A program made the position numbers and the translations under genes. Below, piece by piece: positions 2,709 through 25,309 of a stretch of 64,000 nt of DNA. Numbering within the stretch: the first letter of the stretch is position 1; each line of letters opens with the position of its first letter. Source of the stretch: an uncultured Bdellovibrionales bacterium (lineage in GTDB: Bacteria > Patescibacteriota > Minisyncoccia > Moranbacterales > UBA1568); assembly GCA_964444815.1 (NCBI GenBank), contig CAYUIR010000001.1, positions 78,031 through 142,030 of the forward strand. The letters run 5' to 3'. Under the pieces are notes generated by a model that was not told the origin of the DNA, searched no databases, and saw nothing but the letters and a program-made list of their open reading frames with translations.

Positions 2709-3533
2709 ATGTCAGAAAAAGCGCTTACTATTGCCGTCAATGGGTATCGGAGTCCAGAAATCTTGCGACTCTGTCTTCAGTCTATAGAACGAGAGATGAC
2801 GGGGAGCGGCATAGACTACGAGGTGATTGTGGCTGATAGCGCCACAGAGGAGGCTACCGAGATGCTCATGCGGGAAGAATTTCCAAAAATGAGATTCTTT
2901 CCCTTTGTTCACAATGTCGGCTTCAAGAAGCTCGTGAACGTGTCCATCGAAGAAGCACGCGGGGAATACGTTTTTCTTATCAATAGTGACATCGTGCTCA
3001 GTCCGGGTGCGGTGCCGGAAATGCTCACCTACCTCAAGGCCCATCCAGAAATCGGACTCCTGGGACCCAAACAGTACAATTTCAACGGCAGTCTCCAGCA
3101 GAGTTGTTTCCATTTTTATCGACCCGAGACCATCCTCTATCGCCGGACCTGGCTCGGACGACTCCCATTTGGCAGGAACCATCTGCGCTGGTTTACTCTG
3201 GCAGACCTCGATTTGAGTCGGCCTCAAGCTGTCGACTGGATTATCGGATCAGCTATGCTCGTGTCTCGAGCCAAAGCCAAGGAAGTGGGACCGATGGACG
3301 AACGTTTCTTTCTCTATATGGAAGATGTTGACTGGTGTCGCCGCTTCTGGGAGCACGGATTTAAGGTGGTGCACTATCCGAATACGTTTGTCTACCATTA
3401 CCATGGCAAGGGGAGTGCGCGGGGCGGGTTCTTTGGTTCGCTCCTTGGGAATCGTCTAACGTGGTATCATATCGAGAGTGCCCTCAAATACTTTTGGAAG
3501 TATCGTGGGAAATCATTACCAACAGTACACTAA
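2709..3533 (+). CDS. glycosyltransferase family 2
   Basis: 274 aa. GT-A fold N-terminus (IAVNGYRS...VIVADSATEE) with FLINSDIV and DVDWCRR motifs. Confidence 0.8.
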   Translation: MSEKALTIAVNGYRSPEILRLCLQSIEREMTGSGIDYEVIVADSATEEATEMLMREEFPKMRFFPFVHNVGFKKLVNVSIEEARGEYVFLINSDIVLSPGAVPEMLTYLKAHPEIGLLGPKQYNFNGSLQQSCFHFYRPETILYRRTWLGRLPFGRNHLRWFTLADLDLSRPQAVDWIIGSAMLVSRAKAKEVGPMDERFFLYMEDVDWCRRFWEHGFKVVHYPNTFVYHYHGKGSARGGFFGSLLGNRLTWYHIESALKYFWKYRGKSLPTVH

Positions 3534-5203: not shown

Positions 5204-6031
5204 CTACGGTTCGATGGGGAGACCGCTCTCTTTTTTGAGATAATCACTGCCAGCGAGCGTCTTGCCAGTAAAGATATTGAGATCGGCTAATCTGACACCA
5301 CCTTGAAATGAGGTCAGTTCGTTTTCGCCATAGACCACGATGGTACTACCTGCTGGGATCTCGCCTGAGCGCTTCTCTAATTCTTTGAGCGGAATATGAA
5401 AGGCTCCTCGAATATGAGCCCGTTCATAGGCTTCCGTCGTCTGTACATCGAGGAGCAAGAGATTGGTTGGGGGATTAAAATAGAGCTTTTTAAACTCATC
5501 CAAACTGATGTAGGTCACTTTAGATTGATCGAGAAATGAGTTGGGATTGCCCTCTGAAATGAGTTGATTGCCACCTCGCTTCCAAGCCTCGATGCCACCT
5601 TTCAACATGAAAACAGGGTAGGATTTCTGACGGAGGATAGTCTCAGTCGTTTCTCGTGTATTTTTATCCTGAGCCGAGAAAACAATGATGACCGTACTGC
5701 CTTCTTCTGGCACAAAGGTAGCGAGGGCTCCTGTTGAAATGGATCGGGATCCGAGGAGGTGTTCACTCTCAAAGTCAGCCTGGCCACGGACATCCACTAA
5801 GACGAGCTGTTCTTTGTTCATGAGCTTTTGCCGGATGGTATTGGCATCGAGTTCAGGGATCGGGTTACTTTCTGCGGGAGAAGGGAGGGCAGCGGAGATG
5901 TCTTCTTCTTTGGGAGTATCTTTAAAAAGCGTTCGTCCGATGAAGTAGCCACCGACTAAGAGCACGAGCAAACCGCCTACGAGTACGGCTCGAGCATTTT
6001 TCTTTTCTTGTGAAGTGGGGAGTTCGCGCAT
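5204..6031 (-). CDS. membrane-anchored tandem rhodanese-homology-domain protein (no cysteine at all)
   Basis: N-terminal TM helix. Two RHOD-like repeats (LVDVR...FESEHLLGS; LLDVQTTEAYERAHIRGAFHIP). The protein contains no Cys. Confidence 0.7.
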   Translation of the reverse strand: MRELPTSQEKKNARAVLVGGLLVLLVGGYFIGRTLFKDTPKEEDISAALPSPAESNPIPELDANTIRQKLMNKEQLVLVDVRGQADFESEHLLGSRSISTGALATFVPEEGSTVIIVFSAQDKNTRETTETILRQKSYPVFMLKGGIEAWKRGGNQLISEGNPNSFLDQSKVTYISLDEFKKLYFNPPTNLLLLDVQTTEAYERAHIRGAFHIPLKELEKRSGEIPAGSTIVVYGENELTSFQGGVRLADLNIFTGKTLAGSDYLKKESGLPIEP

Positions 6032-7122: not shown

Positions 7123-7591
7123 AAGGTAGATTTTTTTGTTTTTTCTCTTGTTTGAGGAAACGATGAAGGATGAGCACACCATCTAAGTGATCGACTTCGT
7201 GCTGGATGACTGTCGCGAGGAATCCGCTAGCGCGCAACTTCTTCGGGAGGCCCTTTTCATTGATATAGCGGACTGTGACCGTCTCGGAACGGAGAATGGG
7301 AAAGAATTCGCCTGGGAGACTGAGGCAACCCTCTTCTGAAACGATGAGCTCTTGTGAGCGGGATGTGATCTCGGGATTGATGAGGAAGTACTGTTTCTTC
7401 TCGACCTCAGCGACTGCGAGCCGGAGTGGGATATTGATCTGAGGCGCCGCCAAACCGACCCCGTGCTCCGTGTGCATGGTCACTATCATCTTGGGGAGGA
7501 GTTCCTGTATCTCAGGAGAGAGCGGGTCTGTGACCAGCTGGGTTTTTTGACAGAGGATGGATTTGTCCTCGCCAGTAACGAGTGGAAGCAT
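7106..7591 (-). CDS. def: peptide deformylase
   Basis: GVGLAAPQI, EGCLSLPG and HEVDHLDG motifs. ORF trimmed to the ATG at 7591, 10 nt after the priA stop. Confidence 0.9.
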   Translation of the reverse strand: MLPLVTGEDKSILCQKTQLVTDPLSPEIQELLPKMIVTMHTEHGVGLAAPQINIPLRLAVAEVEKKQYFLINPEITSRSQELIVSEEGCLSLPGEFFPILRSETVTVRYINEKGLPKKLRASGFLATVIQHEVDHLDGVLILHRFLKQEKKQKNLPYDQPL

Positions 7592-7601
7592 AGGGAGTCG
7601 T

Positions 7602-9563
7602 TTAGCGGAGAGAGAGTGGATCAATATCAATGATGAGGTCCTTGCTATTTTTTTCGAGAAAGATGCGGATATCAGGTGGAAGCGTCTCGCGGAATCGGAG
7701 GAGTGTCGTCGACTCAAACCGACCACGCTTTTTCGGTCGATCTACACTCTTCGTCGGATAGAGTCGACAGTCCTTGGTGAGGAGCGGTGAGAGTGCCCTC
7801 GCGAGGTGTTCACTCTTTTTGTGGACCTCTTGGGCTGACTTCCCAGTTGTGCCGAGAGCGACAAAACGCGCAAAGGGCGGATAAGCAAAGTCTCGTCTCT
7901 CTTCAACGAACTTGGCCAAGATACTCGAGCTCCCCTCAGTCACTATTTTTTGGAAAAAGGCGTGTTCTGGATGAAAAGTTTGGACGATGACTCGCCCAGA
8001 AGGGGAGGATACGGTCTGGCGCATGGCTCGGGAAATGTCCCGAAAAAGGCGCTCATCAGCCTGAAAATCAGGAAAAAGAAGGAGACTATCCGCATCAATC
8101 ATAGCAACGAGCGCGAGTTTCGGCAAGGGTGGATCTTTGAGGGCCATCTGGGTACCGATGATGATATCGAGCTCTCCGGCAAGGCCACGAGAGATGATCG
8201 CTTGCAGCGCTCCAGTTGATTTTTGGGTAGAGCTATCGAGGCGCGCGATACGAGCTGGCGGAAAACGCTTGCGGATTTCACGCTCAACCTTTTCGGTGCC
8301 AAAGCCCACATGACGAAACACGAGGTGGCCACAGCTTGGGCAGTTGGGAAAACTCCCGGTCTCAAAGGAGCAATTGAGACAGCGGAAACCACCATCTACG
8401 GTATTGATGAGGGGGTGATCACATTCCTTACAGCGGAAAACTTCTTTACAGCGCTCGCACACGGAGAACGCACTCAGACCCTGACGATTGATATAGAGGA
8501 GAATTTGCTCGCGCCGGGAGAGTGCCTCATCGATACGGAGCGCGAGCTCCTCGGAAACTGGGGAGTAATTCCGACGGTAGCGCTCGAGGCGCAGGTTCAC
8601 CACCGAGAGCCGACTCCCAAAGGGTGGATGGAGTGGTATCGGTGCGACTGGTAGCATATCGCCACGTTCTATCCGAGCCAGAGTCTCAACACTCGGAGTA
8701 CCAGAAGTCAATATGAGGGTGGCTTGGTGGATGTGAGCGAGTAGCTCGGCGACGCGTTTGCCGTGATAACGTGGGCTCATGTCCCATTGCTTATAACTCT
8801 CGTCTTGCTCCTCAGTGACAATGATGGCGCCTAGATTCTTGAATGGGGCAAAGAGGCCCTGGCGAGTCGAGAGGATAATCCGGGCTTCGCCACTTCGCAC
8901 TCGTTCCCAGGCAGAAAAGTAGGCACCGTCGGAGAGATGGCTCTGGAGCGTGGCAATTTTCGCGGCGGGGAAAGCACTCTCTAGAGCTCGGAGAAGGATG
9001 GGAATGAGCGTGATTTCCGGAACCAAGACGAGGACTTGTTTCTGAAACTTTTCGTAATGCTTGATGGCGAGAAGAAGCGAACGCTTGGCTCCAGTATCGC
9101 GCGAGGTATCGATGAAGAGCGGTCGCTCACTCTGTGCCCAGAATGGATTCGCCATGAGGACACGTTCTTCCTTGGTGAGTCGGATGACTTTCAGTACTAC
9201 GGTATGGGCTCCAGATTTTTTGGTGAGGCGCTCTTTGACCCGTTTGGCGATAAAATGTTTGAGTGTCTTCCCAAGCGGAGTAAAATATTCGGTACTGATT
9301 TCTTGGGCGAGTGCGCACTGTGCCCCATTAAGGAGAGCTGGTTCTATAACGTCGGTGACAAATTTCATCCAAGTAGGTCTCCGTCCTGGGAGAGCCTGAC
9401 ACTGAAAGACGATGCCTTGCCCCATCTGACGTCCAAACGATATGGAAACGAGTGAACCAGGCTCGACGGGTACGGTGCTTGCATAGCTAAAAAGCGGTGA
9501 CCGCGCGAGAGGCAGGATCATGAGGGGGGCCACTTCGAGGCGATAGAGCGAAGAGTCTTTCAT
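7602..9563 (-). CDS. priA: primosomal protein N' (PriA) homologue with degenerate helicase motifs
   Basis: VLVLVPEITLIP (motif Ia), Cys-rich Zn region CERCKEVFRCKECDHPL...CLNC...CPSCG, IIIGTQMALK (motif V). Walker A and B are not canonical (see findings). Confidence 0.85.
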   Translation of the reverse strand: MKDSSLYRLEVAPLMILPLARSPLFSYASTVPVEPGSLVSISFGRQMGQGIVFQCQALPGRRPTWMKFVTDVIEPALLNGAQCALAQEISTEYFTPLGKTLKHFIAKRVKERLTKKSGAHTVVLKVIRLTKEERVLMANPFWAQSERPLFIDTSRDTGAKRSLLLAIKHYEKFQKQVLVLVPEITLIPILLRALESAFPAAKIATLQSHLSDGAYFSAWERVRSGEARIILSTRQGLFAPFKNLGAIIVTEEQDESYKQWDMSPRYHGKRVAELLAHIHQATLILTSGTPSVETLARIERGDMLPVAPIPLHPPFGSRLSVVNLRLERYRRNYSPVSEELALRIDEALSRREQILLYINRQGLSAFSVCERCKEVFRCKECDHPLINTVDGGFRCLNCSFETGSFPNCPSCGHLVFRHVGFGTEKVEREIRKRFPPARIARLDSSTQKSTGALQAIISRGLAGELDIIIGTQMALKDPPLPKLALVAMIDADSLLLFPDFQADERLFRDISRAMRQTVSSPSGRVIVQTFHPEHAFFQKIVTEGSSSILAKFVEERRDFAYPPFARFVALGTTGKSAQEVHKKSEHLARALSPLLTKDCRLYPTKSVDRPKKRGRFESTTLLRFRETLPPDIRIFLEKNSKDLIIDIDPLSLR

Positions 9564-20675: not shown

Positions 20676-20748
20676 GGTTTCTCCTAGAAGGGAGGGTGGG
20701 AATATTGCGCCCCCATTATACCTCCAATTCGCTATTTGGCAAGGGTCA

Positions 20749-20775
20749 ACAAAAAAGCCCTTCTGAGGGCTTTTG
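20749..20775. terminator. bidirectional terminator
   Basis: AAAAAAGCCCT-TCTG-AGGGCTTTT. Confidence 0.7.
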
Positions 20776-20815
20776 GGTTATATGTTGTGAAAATAGGACG
20801 ATGATGGAGATCATC

Positions 20816-21442
20816 CTACTCAAAAATCAAAGCGTCGCCATCTTTTAGAGTTTTATAAGGAATCTTGTTTTCAATGCAATACTGTACTTCTTTGTAAATG
20901 TCAGCTGATTCAGGATGGTCAGAATCAAAGTGTGGTAAGAATGCATAATCAATCAGACCAAGCCCCTCCCAAATTGCTTCTTTTTGACCAGCATACGGAA
21001 GATCTGTTGGATCATCAACGATAGCATATCCCCTCAAAGATGGAGAGAGCACGCATCCCGCGGCACTATAGCCAGCGTAAACAAAATCTTTTTGAGTTTT
21101 ATTATACTCTCGCAATATAGTATCGAGCCCACTAAGTCTCATCGCTTGGCGGAGTATAAAAGTATTTCCCCCGCTTATAAAGATTCCTCCTAAGTTCTCT
21201 AATTTTTCTTTGAGCTTAACTTCATTGTCAAAGTAATTTTTTAAATCAAGGACCTCTACTCGAAGTCCAACGTCAGCCAGACTCTGCATATCACTTGTTA
21301 CATGCTTTTCTCGTCTTTGCGGATCAGCTCCGGTAAAGTCCAATGCATTCGGTATATATCCCACCCTTTTATTTTCTGAAAACAATGCTAAAAGCGATTC
21401 TGGATGATTACCAATTTTATATGACGACAGATAGAATTTCAT
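20816..21442 (-). CDS. peptidase S51 (dipeptidase E-like) family protein, AT-rich
   Basis: GGIFISGGNTFILRQAM and the nucleophile context YAGYSAAGCV. GC clearly lower than the flanks. Confidence 0.7.
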   Translation of the reverse strand: MKFYLSSYKIGNHPESLLALFSENKRVGYIPNALDFTGADPQRREKHVTSDMQSLADVGLRVEVLDLKNYFDNEVKLKEKLENLGGIFISGGNTFILRQAMRLSGLDTILREYNKTQKDFVYAGYSAAGCVLSPSLRGYAIVDDPTDLPYAGQKEAIWEGLGLIDYAFLPHFDSDHPESADIYKEVQYCIENKIPYKTLKDGDALIFE

Positions 21443-21448
21443 ATGTTG

Positions 21449-21473
21449 TGCTGGGGAGGAAGGGAAATCGAAC
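21449..21473 (-). repeat. duplicated 3' end (T-loop + acceptor) of tRNA-Gln
   Basis: Minus sense GTTCGATTTCCCTTCCTCCCCAGCA, against GTTCGATCCCTTCCTCCCCAGCA in the intact gene. It abuts the S51 gene ATG. Confidence 0.8.
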
Positions 21474-21512
21474 TGCTCTCCGCCGGCTGGCGGATGCGCT
21501 CTATAGGGCTTC

Positions 21513-21532
21513 CCTGCCTACCGGCAGGCAGG
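21513..21532. repeat. 20-bp GC-rich palindromic element
   Basis: CCTGCCTACCGGCAGGCAGG. Confidence 0.85.
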
Positions 21533-21591
21533 CGCCCTCTAGTCCGGCAGTGCCGGTCACCTCAAACGGGCAAACAGGTATTTTCCCGACC

Positions 21592-21611
21592 CCTGCCTGC
21601 CGGTAGGCAGG
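21592..21611. repeat. 20-bp GC-rich palindromic element (inverse orientation of the centre)
   Basis: CCTGCCTGCCGGTAGGCAGG, the reverse complement of the 21513 copy. Confidence 0.85.
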
Positions 21612-21644
21612 CCTTTCCTCGTTCGATCTCTTCCATCATAACAC

Positions 21645-21669
21645 AAACAAAAAAGCCCCTGAAGGGACC
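21645..21669 (-). terminator. terminator after tRNA-Gln
   Basis: Minus sense GTCCC-TTCA-GGGGC followed by TTTTTTG. Confidence 0.6.
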
Positions 21670-21684
21670 TTTTGTTTGCGTATG

Positions 21685-21756
21685 CTGGGGAGGAAGGGAT
21701 CGAACCTTCGCATGGTGGGACCAGAACCCACTGCCTTACCGCTTGGCTACTCCCCA
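21685..21756 (-). tRNA. tRNA-Gln (anticodon CUG)
   Basis: Hand-folded cloverleaf: acceptor TGGGGAG/CTCCCCA, D-arm GCC/GGC, anticodon arm GTGGG-TTCTGGT-CCCAC, T-arm GAAGG-TTCGATC-CCTTC. U1-A72 as in bacterial tRNA-Gln. CCA not encoded. Confidence 0.9.
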
Positions 21757-22167: not shown

Positions 22168-23082
22168 CTAAACCTTGAGGTAACGGCGGATAGCGATGCT
22201 ACTCGAGAGGACACCGAGCGCGATACCGAGAAGGAGGATGCCGCCAAACACTGGGAGAAAGAAACTAATATAGAGCCCCATGAAATTCCCCTGCGGGATA
22301 GCCCCCTCGGTGAGTGGCGAGATGAAGTAGGCAGCCCCAAAGAGAGCGACGGCAGTAGCAAGGGCGGCCGCGATACCATAGAACACTCCCTCGAAAACAA
22401 ATGGCATGCGTACGTAGATGTTCGACGCACCGACGAGGCGCATAATCTCAAACTCCTGACGGTGTGAGTAGATGGTGATACGGATGGTATTGAAGGTAAT
22501 AAGGACCGCGATAAAGATGAAAGCGGCGCCGAGGCCCAAACCAATCTTCTGGGTAGTCTGGTTGATGCGCTCAAGATTGGCAAAAATCTTTTTGTTCTTG
22601 TCGTAGTTGATGCGACTGATATCACTCTGAAAGGTCGAGCGCTCGAGCTGATTGACGATGACCTCATAGTATTCTGGGGCCACAGCCTTGATGACGAGTG
22701 ACGCCAGGAGTGGATTCTCCCCTATTTCTTCGATAGCCTGAGTGACAGCCACGTTATTCTTGTTTTCAGCGAGGAAAGTCTCAAGCGCCGCGTCACGGGA
22801 AACATATTCGACTGAAGAGATTTCCTTTTTGTATTTGGAGAGTTCGTCACGGATCTCAAGCATGCGGTATTCTGGGACGTCAGGGTTGAATGAGACGTTG
22901 ATGCTCACTTTGTCACGCATGTTCTGGAGCATGTAGTGAGTGGTCAGTCCGAGGAGCGACGAGATGCCCACGATGAAGAGTGAGAGTGTCAAGATGCTGA
23001 CCGTGGCAAATGACAACCAACCGTTGCGACGAAAGTTCTGCCACCCTTCACGAAATGTGCGCCACAGTTTGAGAGTCTTCAT
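22168..23082 (-). CDS. ftsX: cell division permease-like protein FtsX
   Basis: FREGWQNFRRNGWLSFATVSILTLSLF, a large extracytoplasmic loop, and 3 C-terminal TM helices. Confidence 0.9.
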   Translation of the reverse strand: MKTLKLWRTFREGWQNFRRNGWLSFATVSILTLSLFIVGISSLLGLTTHYMLQNMRDKVSINVSFNPDVPEYRMLEIRDELSKYKKEISSVEYVSRDAALETFLAENKNNVAVTQAIEEIGENPLLASLVIKAVAPEYYEVIVNQLERSTFQSDISRINYDKNKKIFANLERINQTTQKIGLGLGAAFIFIAVLITFNTIRITIYSHRQEFEIMRLVGASNIYVRMPFVFEGVFYGIAAALATAVALFGAAYFISPLTEGAIPQGNFMGLYISFFLPVFGGILLLGIALGVLSSSIAIRRYLKV

Positions 23083-25056: not shown

Positions 25057-25129
25057 GCCGTCTTAGCTCAGTTGGTAGAGCGTGGCATTCGTAACGCCAA
25101 GGTCCGGAGTTCGATCCTCCGAGACGGCT
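25057..25129 (+). tRNA. tRNA-Thr (anticodon CGU)
   Basis: Acceptor GCCGTCT/AGACGGC, D-arm GCTC-AGTTGGTA-GAGC, anticodon loop TTCGTAA, T-arm CGGAG-TTCGATC-CTCCG. TTGAAC-17-TAGACT promoter about 80 nt upstream. Confidence 0.9.
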
Positions 25130-25146
25130 CTCAGAAAATAACACGC

Positions 25147-25196
25147 AGGTCTCAGGTTCCCTGCCCGCCTTTGGAGGGGATCCTGGAAGGTGGCTC
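25147..25196 (+). pseudogene. tRNA 3'-half-like remnant with a hairpin inserted in the T-loop
   Basis: AGGTCTCAGGTTC-[CCTGCCCGCCTTTGGAGGGG]-ATCCTGGAAGGTGGCTC. T-stem CAGG/CCTG is retained. Confidence 0.5.
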
Positions 25197-25215: not shown

Positions 25216-25276
25216 GTAACGCCAAGGTCCCAAGTTCCCTGCCTGCCGGCAGGCAGGAATCCCGGTCATCGGCTCC
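25216..25276 (+). pseudogene. tRNA-Thr 3'-half copy with the 20-bp palindrome inserted in the T-loop
   Basis: GTAACGCCAAGGTCC is identical to tRNA-Thr positions 35-49. It continues CAAGTTC-[CCTGCCTGCCGGCAGGCAGG]-AATCCCGGTCATCGGCTC. Confidence 0.7.
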
Positions 25277-25280
25277 ATAG

Positions 25281-25309
25281 AAAAAACGCCTTCATAAAGG
25301 CGTTTTTTT
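25281..25309. terminator. bidirectional terminator
   Basis: AAAAAACGCCTT-CATA-AAGGCGTTTTTTT. Confidence 0.85.

Follow-up and report, generated by a model that had tools for sequence, protein, structure and literature searches.

Small structured elements with arms derived from the neighbouring tRNA at tRNA 3' flanks in Moranbacteria: a candidate uncatalogued family

The classic attachment-site (att) signature of tRNA-targeting integrative elements and their integrase-less derivatives (CIMEs) consists of an intact tRNA gene, an insert and, beyond it, a direct repeat of the tRNA 3' end. Occupancy by such elements is patchy, further DNA gathers beside their repeats, and integrase lineages are normally specific for one tRNA. 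Other described systems combine tRNA-like and repeat-like features in different ways. The tRNA-like domain of transfer-messenger RNA (tmRNA), the Y RNA YrlA and mascRNA-type signals place an acceptor/T-stem-like helix of paired ends around a structured insert, with a 3' end at the discriminator, sometimes an encoded CCA, and plausible recruitment of RNase P, 3' processing and CCA addition. Miniature inverted-repeat transposable elements (MITEs) and the REP/REPIN, Correia, RUP, ERIC and Rickettsia palindromic elements are short, non-coding, multi-copy, extragenic and hairpin-rich, with terminal inverted sequences, flanking duplications, presence/absence polymorphism, and recombination and homogenisation within genomes. 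Finally, the primer-binding sites of retroviruses and long terminal repeat (LTR) elements are complementary to the last ~18-21 nt of a tRNA, a stretch reaching back to the T-loop, the internal guide sequences (IGS) and exon-binding sites (EBS) of group I/II introns can pair with flanking targets, and group IIC introns insert just after intrinsic terminators. Here we describe an element that resembles each of these systems in part, found in a 64,000-nt stretch of contig CAYUIR010000001.1 (GCA_964444815.1), hereafter the window, whose coordinates are used throughout. On its minus strand an intact tRNA-Gln(CTG) and its intrinsic terminator (term1) are followed by a GC-rich segment of ~190 nt and then by a copy of the tRNA-Gln 3' end at 21472-21449. 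Comparison loci from Moranbacteria metagenome-assembled genomes (MAGs) and metagenome contigs are denoted by L-numbers.

Comparative analysis revealed a conserved, folded family tied to tRNA 3' flanks, with tRNA-derived arms, patchy occupancy, copying within genomes and recombination between copies. The best reading of the window segment, which we consider moderately probable, is that it represents one copy of an uncatalogued family of small, non-autonomous, spreading structured elements. In a first-pass annotation the segment had been interpreted either as a decayed or non-autonomous integrative element or as an unrecognised structured RNA in the leader of the downstream S51 peptidase gene; the structured-RNA option held in substance, as conservation of the core extends over relatives and unrelated metagenome contigs, its helices show compensatory changes and Rfam has no match for it.

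The copy set was drawn from nhmmer, a covariance model and one scan of metagenome contigs with a degenerate core pattern, in which about 90 of the 119 matches listed were chance and were discarded by nhmmer. Besides the window's own population, nhmmer recovered copies from the Moranbacteria loci L012, L013, L015 (three copies), L027 and L035 and from at least ~25 unclassified metagenome contigs, while the covariance model recognised at least 32 copies of a core of ~95 nt. A same-strand tRNA is located ~45-65 nt upstream (extremes 25 and 193) in 27 of the 32 copies among those found, and at least 12 tRNA species altogether precede the element, including Gln(CTG), Gln(TTG), Tyr, Asn, Glu(CTC), Glu(TTC), Phe, Lys(TTT), Lys(CTT), Ala, Thr, Arg(CCG), Arg(TCG), Gly, His and Ser. 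Copies measure about 125-190 nt with an insert of 110-170 nt that holds no open reading frame (ORF), and they are usually placed after the terminator of the tRNA and sometimes inside a tRNA operon, as in the terminator-less operons of L098 and L084 with the order Phe-element-Met-Gly. Behind at least 12 tRNA species the core retains >85% identity; two different tRNAs less than 1 kb apart can both carry the element, and the most found on one contig is two full copies, to which L015 adds a truncated third. A few copies stand behind protein-coding genes, including one in L083 whose tail repeats 10 nt of the rpsI 3' end, and L106 has a tRNA-Gln-type tail with no tRNA nearby. As the same architecture recurs behind many tRNAs, the second tRNA-Gln fragment of the window is the 3' arm of the element and is not specific for tRNA-Gln.

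The arms of the element follow the sequence of the tRNA that precedes it. In the common architecture the 5' arm corresponds to the reverse complement of a stretch of the upstream tRNA that begins at G53 and takes in the T-loop, the T-stem 3' strand and often the acceptor 3' strand. The 3' arm, or tail, repeats in direct orientation the T-stem 3' strand, the acceptor 3' strand and the discriminator of the same tRNA, and normally extends from the T-loop/T-stem boundary to 1-6 nt past the annotated tRNA 3' end. For the window copy, the source of both arms is the stretch of tRNA-Gln from G53 to the discriminator, here termed A. Compared with the 14-nt 3' strand of the tRNA, 25 of 27 tails among the copies found have at most two mismatches and 14 of 27 have none, for which we estimate a chance rate of <1e-3 per locus. 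Arm pairing was computed with fixed 21-nt and 26-nt arms, since unrestricted RNAduplex over-extended into the flanks, and yielded a mean of −24.1 kcal/mol for the 5' arm with its cognate tRNA 3' end versus −15.5 kcal/mol for non-cognate ends, and −18.3 kcal/mol for the 5' arm with its own tail versus −12.2 kcal/mol with other tails. In L103, all 21 nt of the 5' arm are complementary to tRNA-Asn G53-G73. For tRNAs with G·U pairs in their stems (L120 Tyr, L161 Gly), the sequence of the 5' arm is Watson-Crick complementary to the 3' strand, and the arm therefore looks copied, as a reverse complement, from the 3' strand and not from the 5' strands of the tRNA. Pairing over the full acceptor and T-stem length was observed in L103, L120, L137 and L079 (−25 to −32 kcal/mol), and pairing of the T-stem part alone in the window, L012 and L098. 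A comparable layout of antisense arm, core and tRNA tail with a different middle occurs at L056 5090-5255 (plus strand) and L153 ~5740-5860 (minus strand); the L056 insert has only its TTCGAAC-GGG start and its GCGAGCGATG end in common with the family. Judging from these two loci, arms of this design may extend beyond elements with the present core.

The core is conserved and strand-specifically folded, with compensatory changes. Its order is GGGGUCGGGAAAC-GNRA-GUUUCCC-GUUUGGGG-UGACC, a variable hairpin, CUAGAGGGC-GGAA-GCCCUAUAG, AGCGCA, a second variable hairpin and GAGCAG, and RNAalifold supports the helices P2/P2a and P4. In the covariance-model alignment of 32 copies, 95.6% of cells are paired versus 35-55% when the partners are slid, and both sides have changed in 9 of 19 pairs; the observed values were reached by none of 500 shuffles. 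Changes in P4 include UA to AU or CG, and CG to UA via UG intermediates, and in a second core subtype every stem position of P4 is replaced (CUGAGAAC/GUUCUCAG); MAFFT set the P4 subtypes in different registers, so the comparison of type 1 with type 2 was made by direct reading. The loops are GGAA and GGGA, both of the GNRA type. On the tRNA-sense strand G·U pairs outnumber A·C pairs by 36 to 3, from which we conclude that folding is strand-specific, and one G·U pair is invariant. The junctions and an asymmetric bulge are highly conserved and not palindromic, while the P3 and P5 hairpins vary in sequence and length among copies and are clear in about half of them. Single-sequence folds gave z-scores of −5.5 and −5.0. 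The covariation check and the comparison with genomes lacking the segment, both of which had been proposed with the first-pass annotation, thus gave compensatory changes in the core helices and orthologous tRNA-Gln sites that are either filled or empty; the opposite outcome it had envisaged, namely a simple local tandem duplication with neither conservation nor covariation, does not apply to relatives that both conserve and covary.

The window copy displays all parts of this architecture (Table 1). The 17-nt sequence TGCTGGGGAGGAAGGGA occurs exactly at 21449-21465 and 21683-21699, where 100 shuffles of the window gave a mean of 0.16 occurrences at ≤3 mismatches. After an indel of 1-2 nt the repeat resumes through the T-loop (TTCGAT) up to 21472, giving 24 nt with the T-loop, and hence the length of 23-25 nt assigned in the first-pass annotation was about right; the contact that it described between this repeat and the start codon of the S51 gene is interrupted by six bases (CAACAT). 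The bracketed segment, given there as 209 nt without an ORF, indeed spans ~210 nt, and its only ORFs are on the plus strand, antisense through tRNA-Gln. Each of the five hairpins described after the terminator was located by direct reading and an inverted-repeat search, including the long stem CTAGAGGGC...GCCCTATAG at 21501-21542, and the two 20-bp palindromes are, as claimed, mutual reverse complements. Two features had been overlooked: the 5' end of the segment (GGAAGAGATCGAAC) repeats the T-loop and T-stem 3' strand of the tRNA in inverted orientation, and the palindrome occurs a third time at 25238-25257, downstream of tRNA-Thr. The tail UUCGAUUUCCCUUCCUCCCCAGCA repeats tRNA-Gln in direct orientation, from the T-loop through the T-stem 3' strand and acceptor 3' strand to the discriminator and CA. 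Together, the tRNA-Gln 3' end, term1 and the 5' arm form a long imperfect palindrome (inverted repeat with 34-nt arms), and the acceptor-complement part of the 5' arm, which would extend 5'-ward to ~21641, is decayed in the window's lineage. Folding of the minus-strand RNA 21449-21641 gave z = −5.5 relative to dinucleotide shuffles.

Table 1. Features of the tRNA-Gln locus in the window, listed in minus-strand order.
Feature	Coordinates	Strand	Evidence or remark
prfB, ftsE, ftsX	22168-23082	minus	upstream end of locus
Promoter-like site	22155-22127	minus	precedes tRNA-Gln 5' pseudo-half
tRNA-Gln 5' pseudo-half	22113-22017	minus	upstream of intact tRNA-Gln
GIY-YIG ORF, 83 aa	22012-21761	minus	Pfam E = 2e-16
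Intact tRNA-Gln(CTG)	21684-21756	minus	ARAGORN; Rfam tRNA model 59.8 bits
Intrinsic terminator hairpin and T-run (term1)	21650-21673	minus	terminator scan; between tRNA-Gln and element
Element, whole window copy	21449-21634	minus	
5' arm GGAAGAGATCGAAC	21621-21634	minus	reverse complement of tRNA-Gln T-loop and T-stem 3' strand, 1 mismatch; direct reading, inverted repeats, arm-pairing statistics (24 copies)
20-bp palindrome, 5' arm/core junction	21592-21611	minus	optional hairpin; most other copies, among them L012, L027 and L167, lack it
P2/P2a	21555-21591	minus	GGUCG:UGACC encloses hairpin GGGAAAA-UACC-UGUUUGCCC and conserved 3' bulge GUUUGAGG; RNAalifold, covariance-model alignment and pair counts, P2a variants
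P3 CCGGC-ACU-GCCGG	21544-21556	minus	variable-sequence hairpin
P4 CUAGAGGGC/GCCCUAUAG	21501-21542	minus	loop split by second 20-bp palindrome, 21513-21532
Junction AGCGCA	21495-21500	minus	unpaired, conserved; alignments of copies
P5 UCCGCC-AGCC-GGCGGA	21479-21494	minus	minimal form elsewhere GCGAAGC or GCGUAGC
Junction GAGCAG and 3' arm (tail) UUCGAUUUCCCUUCCUCCCCAGCA	21449-21478	minus	the 'second tRNA-Gln fragment'
S51 peptidase gene	20816-21442	minus	Pfam PF03575, E = 1.9e-21
term2, homologous to term1	20745-20779	minus	local alignment score 33 vs shuffles 10.4 +/- 2.0; 0/2000 shuffles reach 33

Outside the family core, the palindrome CCTGCCTRCCGGYAGGCAGG was found at the arm-core junction of the window copy, in its P4 GGAA loop and in the P4 loop of L106, which shares this insertion with the window while most copies are capped by a plain GGAA tetraloop; the chance expectation is 0.01 copies per window. 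The two palindromes of the window copy are later loop insertions. The identical 20-nt palindrome (CCTGCCTGCCGGTAGGCAGG) is present at L079 989-1008, L084 753-772, L017 2661-2680, L056 342-361 and 978-997, and L106 345-364. It stands in the D-loops of tRNA 5' fragments directly after GTGGATA (L079, L084), in a pseudo T-loop downstream of tRNA-Thr (window, L017) and, in L056, in two flanks of unassigned type, and by its positions it appears to be a tiny hairpin module that invades loops.

At orthologous loci the element behaves as an insertion. The order ftsX to tRNA-Gln is kept in 50 species-level loci; nhmmer and the covariance model detected the element at tRNA-Gln in ~6-7 of these, and in ~40 of the 50 it is absent, most of which run from tRNA-Gln through the terminator to the next gene. 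The segment following tRNA-Gln is conserved in L012, L013 and L015, without the two palindromes in L012. At the empty site L061 the terminator found ahead of the element in L012 and L015 is still present, which places the element after an ancestral terminator. Beyond the tRNA end, the direct repeat reaches 24-50 nt further, through trailer and terminator, in L166, L179 and L084, and across copies the duplicated stretch comprises the tRNA 3' strand with or without the terminator (15-55 nt). With the S51 gene discounted, the tail and term2 of the window likewise form a second copy of the tRNA 3' end plus terminator, an arrangement that is uninterrupted in L013. Written with A' for the antisense copy of A, the general form [tRNA...A-trailer-terminator][A'-core][A-trailer-terminator] looks like an insertion with a target duplication of ~55-60 bp, spanning from the T-loop/T-stem boundary to the end of the terminator.

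Copying and recombination are visible between individual copies. Identical variable hairpins are found in the two copies of L120, one after Tyr and one after Glu, and the window copy is a mosaic whose terminator, 5' arm and P2a match a tRNA-Gln(TTG) copy in L167, whereas the sequence from P3 onward matches L012 at 94%. Exact-protein matches of FtsX and S51 belong to the same population and have an identical 725-nt spacer, with the exception of the variant L008, in which the palindromes are absent and P4 carries a deletion. An extended array was observed at L015 2522-7450, where tRNA-Gln is followed by an element with tail, a truncated second element at ~3241-3288, ~4 kb of genes (a 278-aa ORF without Pfam match, two NUDIX, one EamA and two further ORFs without Pfam match), a degenerate fragment of the tRNA 3' end together with a terminator, and finally the third element, again full, at 7285-7448.

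We regard it as fairly probable that the element acts as an RNA, that its arms form an acceptor/T-stem-like closing helix possibly recruiting tRNA-processing enzymes, and that it is non-autonomous and selfish. The element would exist in single-stranded form with the polarity of the tRNA, most probably as an RNA made in the same transcript as the tRNA or immediately after it, and its arms would close the core in a helix imitating the coaxial acceptor/T-stem minihelix. RNase P, 3' trimming and CCA addition could then define and stabilise its ends, while non-autonomous, selfish spread would carry it among tRNA loci. Both the 5' arm, through its complementarity to the tRNA 3' end, and the palindromic T-loop sequence TTCGAA, which is universal, could serve either in target recognition or as homology for template switching, and three routes are conceivable. 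In the first, base pairing between the 5' arm and the tRNA 3' strand would guide insertion, and staggered cuts, one at the T-arm and one behind the terminator, would produce the long duplication. Alternatively, during replication the nascent strand might fold back at the terminator hairpin to generate A' and switch into and out of a donor core via TTCGAA, present on either side of the core as TCGAAC...GUUCGA. In the third route, a single-stranded DNA recombination site would mimic the target. That the family constitutes a new guide-bearing mobile class of RNA or single-stranded DNA parasitising tRNA genes, in which the antisense 5' arm selects the target, insertion duplicates the T-arm-to-terminator stretch, the arms are rewritten for each target and mature in a tRNA-like manner, and the core is a ribozyme or an enzyme scaffold, is a tentative proposal to which we give a minor but real chance, as we do to a categorically new mechanism.

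Several observations weigh against a spreading, RNA-acting element. The copy counts derive from a biased sample obtained with one pattern scan and are lower bounds. RNA and single-stranded DNA cannot be separated on the basis of sequence alone, and the GCGNAGC mini-hairpins of P5 belong to a well-known type of stable DNA hairpin. The element usually lies behind a terminator, and no convincing candidate promoter for it was detected. No transposase, integrase or reverse transcriptase is associated with it, although whole genomes were not searched for such enzymes, and mobility is thus inferred from distribution only. The long target duplication is documented in ~5 loci, and for most copies none is visible past the tRNA end. 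The arms of L157 and L084 are nearly unpaired (−4.7 and −2.2 kcal/mol), and in the tRNA-Gln lineage, including the window, the acceptor complement of the 5' arm has decayed with the tail remaining perfect; a full acceptor-stem mimic is therefore not kept everywhere, and tail identity is maintained by something besides the closing helix P1.

Among the alternatives, a single-stranded DNA element of the REP/REPIN, PATE or integron attC kind, moved by a host HUH or tyrosine enzyme, survives best, though we judge it unlikely. The family is a short, multi-copy, hairpin-rich extragenic repeat with presence/absence polymorphism, and strand-specific folding would fit a DNA top strand equally well; the P5 mini-hairpins GCGAAGC and GCGTAGC and the Watson-Crick arms found where the tRNA has G·U also speak for it. 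Moreover, arm and tail make up a duplex copy of the target, which folded CTX-phage attP and integron attC sites also form. However, the conserved non-palindromic junctions, the asymmetric bulge and the invariant G·U pair are more typical of folded RNA, placement inside tRNA operons implies that some copies are transcribed, and no REP-associated tyrosine transposase (RAYT), TnpA or integron integrase was seen near any copy, whole genomes again not having been searched.

Slightly less likely still is a host-beneficial, non-mobile RNA coupled to the tRNA, acting either as a cis switch on tRNA maturation or as an acceptor-mimicking decoy or regulator of tRNA-binding enzymes or toxins. With A in the tRNA 3' end, A' in the antisense arm and a second direct copy, A'', in the tail, two mutually exclusive pairings are available, of which A' with the real tRNA is better than A' with the tail. 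Strong conservation of the core, and identity of the tail with the tRNA even where the 5' arm has decayed, would also suit a host function. Yet such a function is difficult to align with patchy occupancy of the orthologous tRNA-Gln, with the P4 deletion in the strain-level variant L008, with copies whose arms do not pair or that follow protein-coding genes, and with the terminator that usually separates the tRNA from the element.

An integrase-type origin, with the tRNA fragment as attR and the 209 nt as the remnant of an attP arm of a decayed or non-autonomous, CIME-like element, appears improbable. The part of this earlier interpretation that stands is the direct repeat behind an intact tRNA together with the insertion-like behaviour. 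The S51 cassette directly beside the tail also speaks for it, and the ~4 kb of cargo-like genes between [tRNA 3' end-terminator-element] modules in the L015 array resemble accretion. The classic integrase picture does not fit. In contrast to integrative elements, a single core is shared by loci of at least 12 tRNA species, the arms matching the 3' end of each, an extra inverted tRNA copy is present, copies lie within tRNA operons and the ~110-170-nt insert comes without a recombinase. Pfam scans of the ORFs near the window copy and the L015 array detected no integrase or other recombinase, whole genomes not being part of the search. Furthermore, covariation, the excess of G·U pairs and the GNRA loops are signs of a folded single strand and not of protein-bound duplex arm sites, and the terminator next to the tRNA is ancestral, as L061 shows, and was not brought by the element.

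A function as 5' leader or riboswitch of the S51 gene, whose start codon lies 6 nt beyond the element, has practically no probability left and is refuted by the comparative data, as the element follows the tRNA whatever comes next (an unrelated gene, a terminator or another tRNA) and S51 is an AT-rich, repeat-bounded cassette missing from L013. Chance similarity or a one-off local tandem duplication, suggested by the small size of the repeat only, is equally negligible given the shuffle expectation and the same architecture at 27 or more tRNA loci.

The non-autonomous structured element preferred here was further compared with catalogued families, and it matches none of those tested, being akin to small structured repeats and tRNA-like closing helices. 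Rfam 15 contains no family over the element at E <= 10 in the window or at E <= 1 in four clean loci; in the window scan the tRNA alone scored, with all other matches at E >= 0.16 regarded as noise and meaningless miRNA-type matches on the long hairpin. The element had no blastn match in phage and plasmid collections, and full-text searches of the literature yielded no description of such an element. A pattern match on the viral contig L062 was unconfirmed by nhmmer and is taken as chance. A likeness to RNase P CR-I (GAGGAAAG) was dropped as it occurs in the window copy only, and likenesses to 5S rRNA, the ZTP/TPP riboswitches and the 11-nt tetraloop receptor were dropped without Rfam support.

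The remaining described systems differ in equally defined ways. Unlike in tmRNA, YrlA or mascRNA-type signals, the arms originate from the neighbouring tRNA and hence have many acceptor identities, the core replaces the T-loop, and the element is multi-copy and dispensable, without a D-loop analogue, tag ORF or Ro-binding stem; neither ARAGORN nor the Rfam tmRNA and YrlA models detect it. A tmRNA or permuted tmRNA was rejected on the negative ARAGORN result, the lack of a tag ORF or resume codon and an acceptor identity that varies with the neighbouring tRNA. In contrast to MITEs and other small repeats, the terminal inverted repeat is target-derived and varies with each tRNA instead of being encoded by the element, the duplication where visible is ~55-60 bp and not 2-10 bp, and the core is a multi-helix structure with conserved junctions, tied to tRNA 3' flanks, and not a simple palindrome. 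Compared with retroelements and introns, the element lacks a reverse transcriptase, an LTR and an intron catalytic core, no Rfam intron model matches it, CCA lies outside the complement, and the upstream tRNA is complete, leaving nothing to splice.

Downstream of the element, the S51 gene has 38% G+C versus ~52% for the genome, and its cassette (20780-21450, minus strand) is bounded by the 10-nt direct repeat CACAACATAT at 21441-21450 and 20780-20789. It follows the element only in the window's population and in L012; in L013, which is devoid of S51, the tail is succeeded by a terminator and the promoter of the next gene. Base composition, bounding repeats and absence from L013 all point to a recent single-gene insertion next to the tail.

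Other tRNA flanks of these genomes carry insertions of different kinds. Downstream of tRNA-Thr (25057-25130) the window contains two degenerate direct copies of the tRNA-Thr 3' half (25145-25196 and 25216-25275, plus strand), in each of which the T-loop is split by a GC-rich insert, the second being the same 20-bp palindrome, and the tRNA-Thr terminator (25281-25309) comes only after the second copy; as the covariance model has no match at these repeats, they represent a different kind of tRNA-flank repeat. The tRNA-Gln pseudo-half upstream of the intact gene covers positions 1 to ~39, ends in the anticodon loop and has a D-arm interrupted by two GC-rich hairpin insertions. L015 2172-2517 keeps the arrangement of pseudo-half and GIY-YIG gene at 73% identity, and L025 has the repeated anticodon-arm segment alone at the same offset (~276 nt upstream of tRNA-Gln). 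Taken together, pseudo-half and GIY-YIG gene look like a tRNA-Gln-specific homing-endonuclease insertion that rebuilt the tRNA. At L030 ~8275-8412 (plus strand), a second tRNA-Gln-like sequence of the window's type stands directly after tRNA-Gln, with the first acceptor-stem bases missing and two GC-rich hairpin insertions of ~30-40 nt, in the D-loop and after the anticodon loop. Finally, L137 1158-1361 (minus strand) yielded a group I intron-like match (RF00028, 42 bits, E = 9e-8, below the gathering score of 50) between tRNA-Thr(TGT) and tRNA-Thr(GGT). The syntenic L120 has tRNA-Tyr at this place, ARAGORN reported no tRNA-Tyr in L137, and the match may be an intron-interrupted tRNA-Tyr.

With regard to the host, the window is assigned by its FtsX relatives to Candidatus Moranbacteria within the candidate phyla radiation (CPR)/Patescibacteria. 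Records titled 'uncultured Bdellovibrionales bacterium' (L012-L018 and other CAZ*/CAY* records) share 70-100% FtsX identity and synteny with records titled Moranbacteria or Moraniibacteriota, and the Bdellovibrionales label of these MAG records looks like a taxonomy error.

If the interpretation as a spreading structured element is correct, the tiny and supposedly streamlined genomes of CPR/Patescibacteria would carry a widespread, uncatalogued family of small elements, and a new RNA motif whose fold and ends can be tested would be added to those described, together with a natural tRNA-minihelix scaffold around a foreign RNA domain. The inverted and direct target copies at loci of at least 12 tRNA species would then pose a puzzle for which guided, template-switching or long-staggered-cut insertion are possible solutions. 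For annotation, it follows that tRNA 3' fragments in these genomes should not automatically be taken as integrase att scars. Moranbacteria tRNA flanks would be crowded with small selfish elements, among them the GIY-YIG gene, loop-invading 20-bp palindromes and possibly group I introns.

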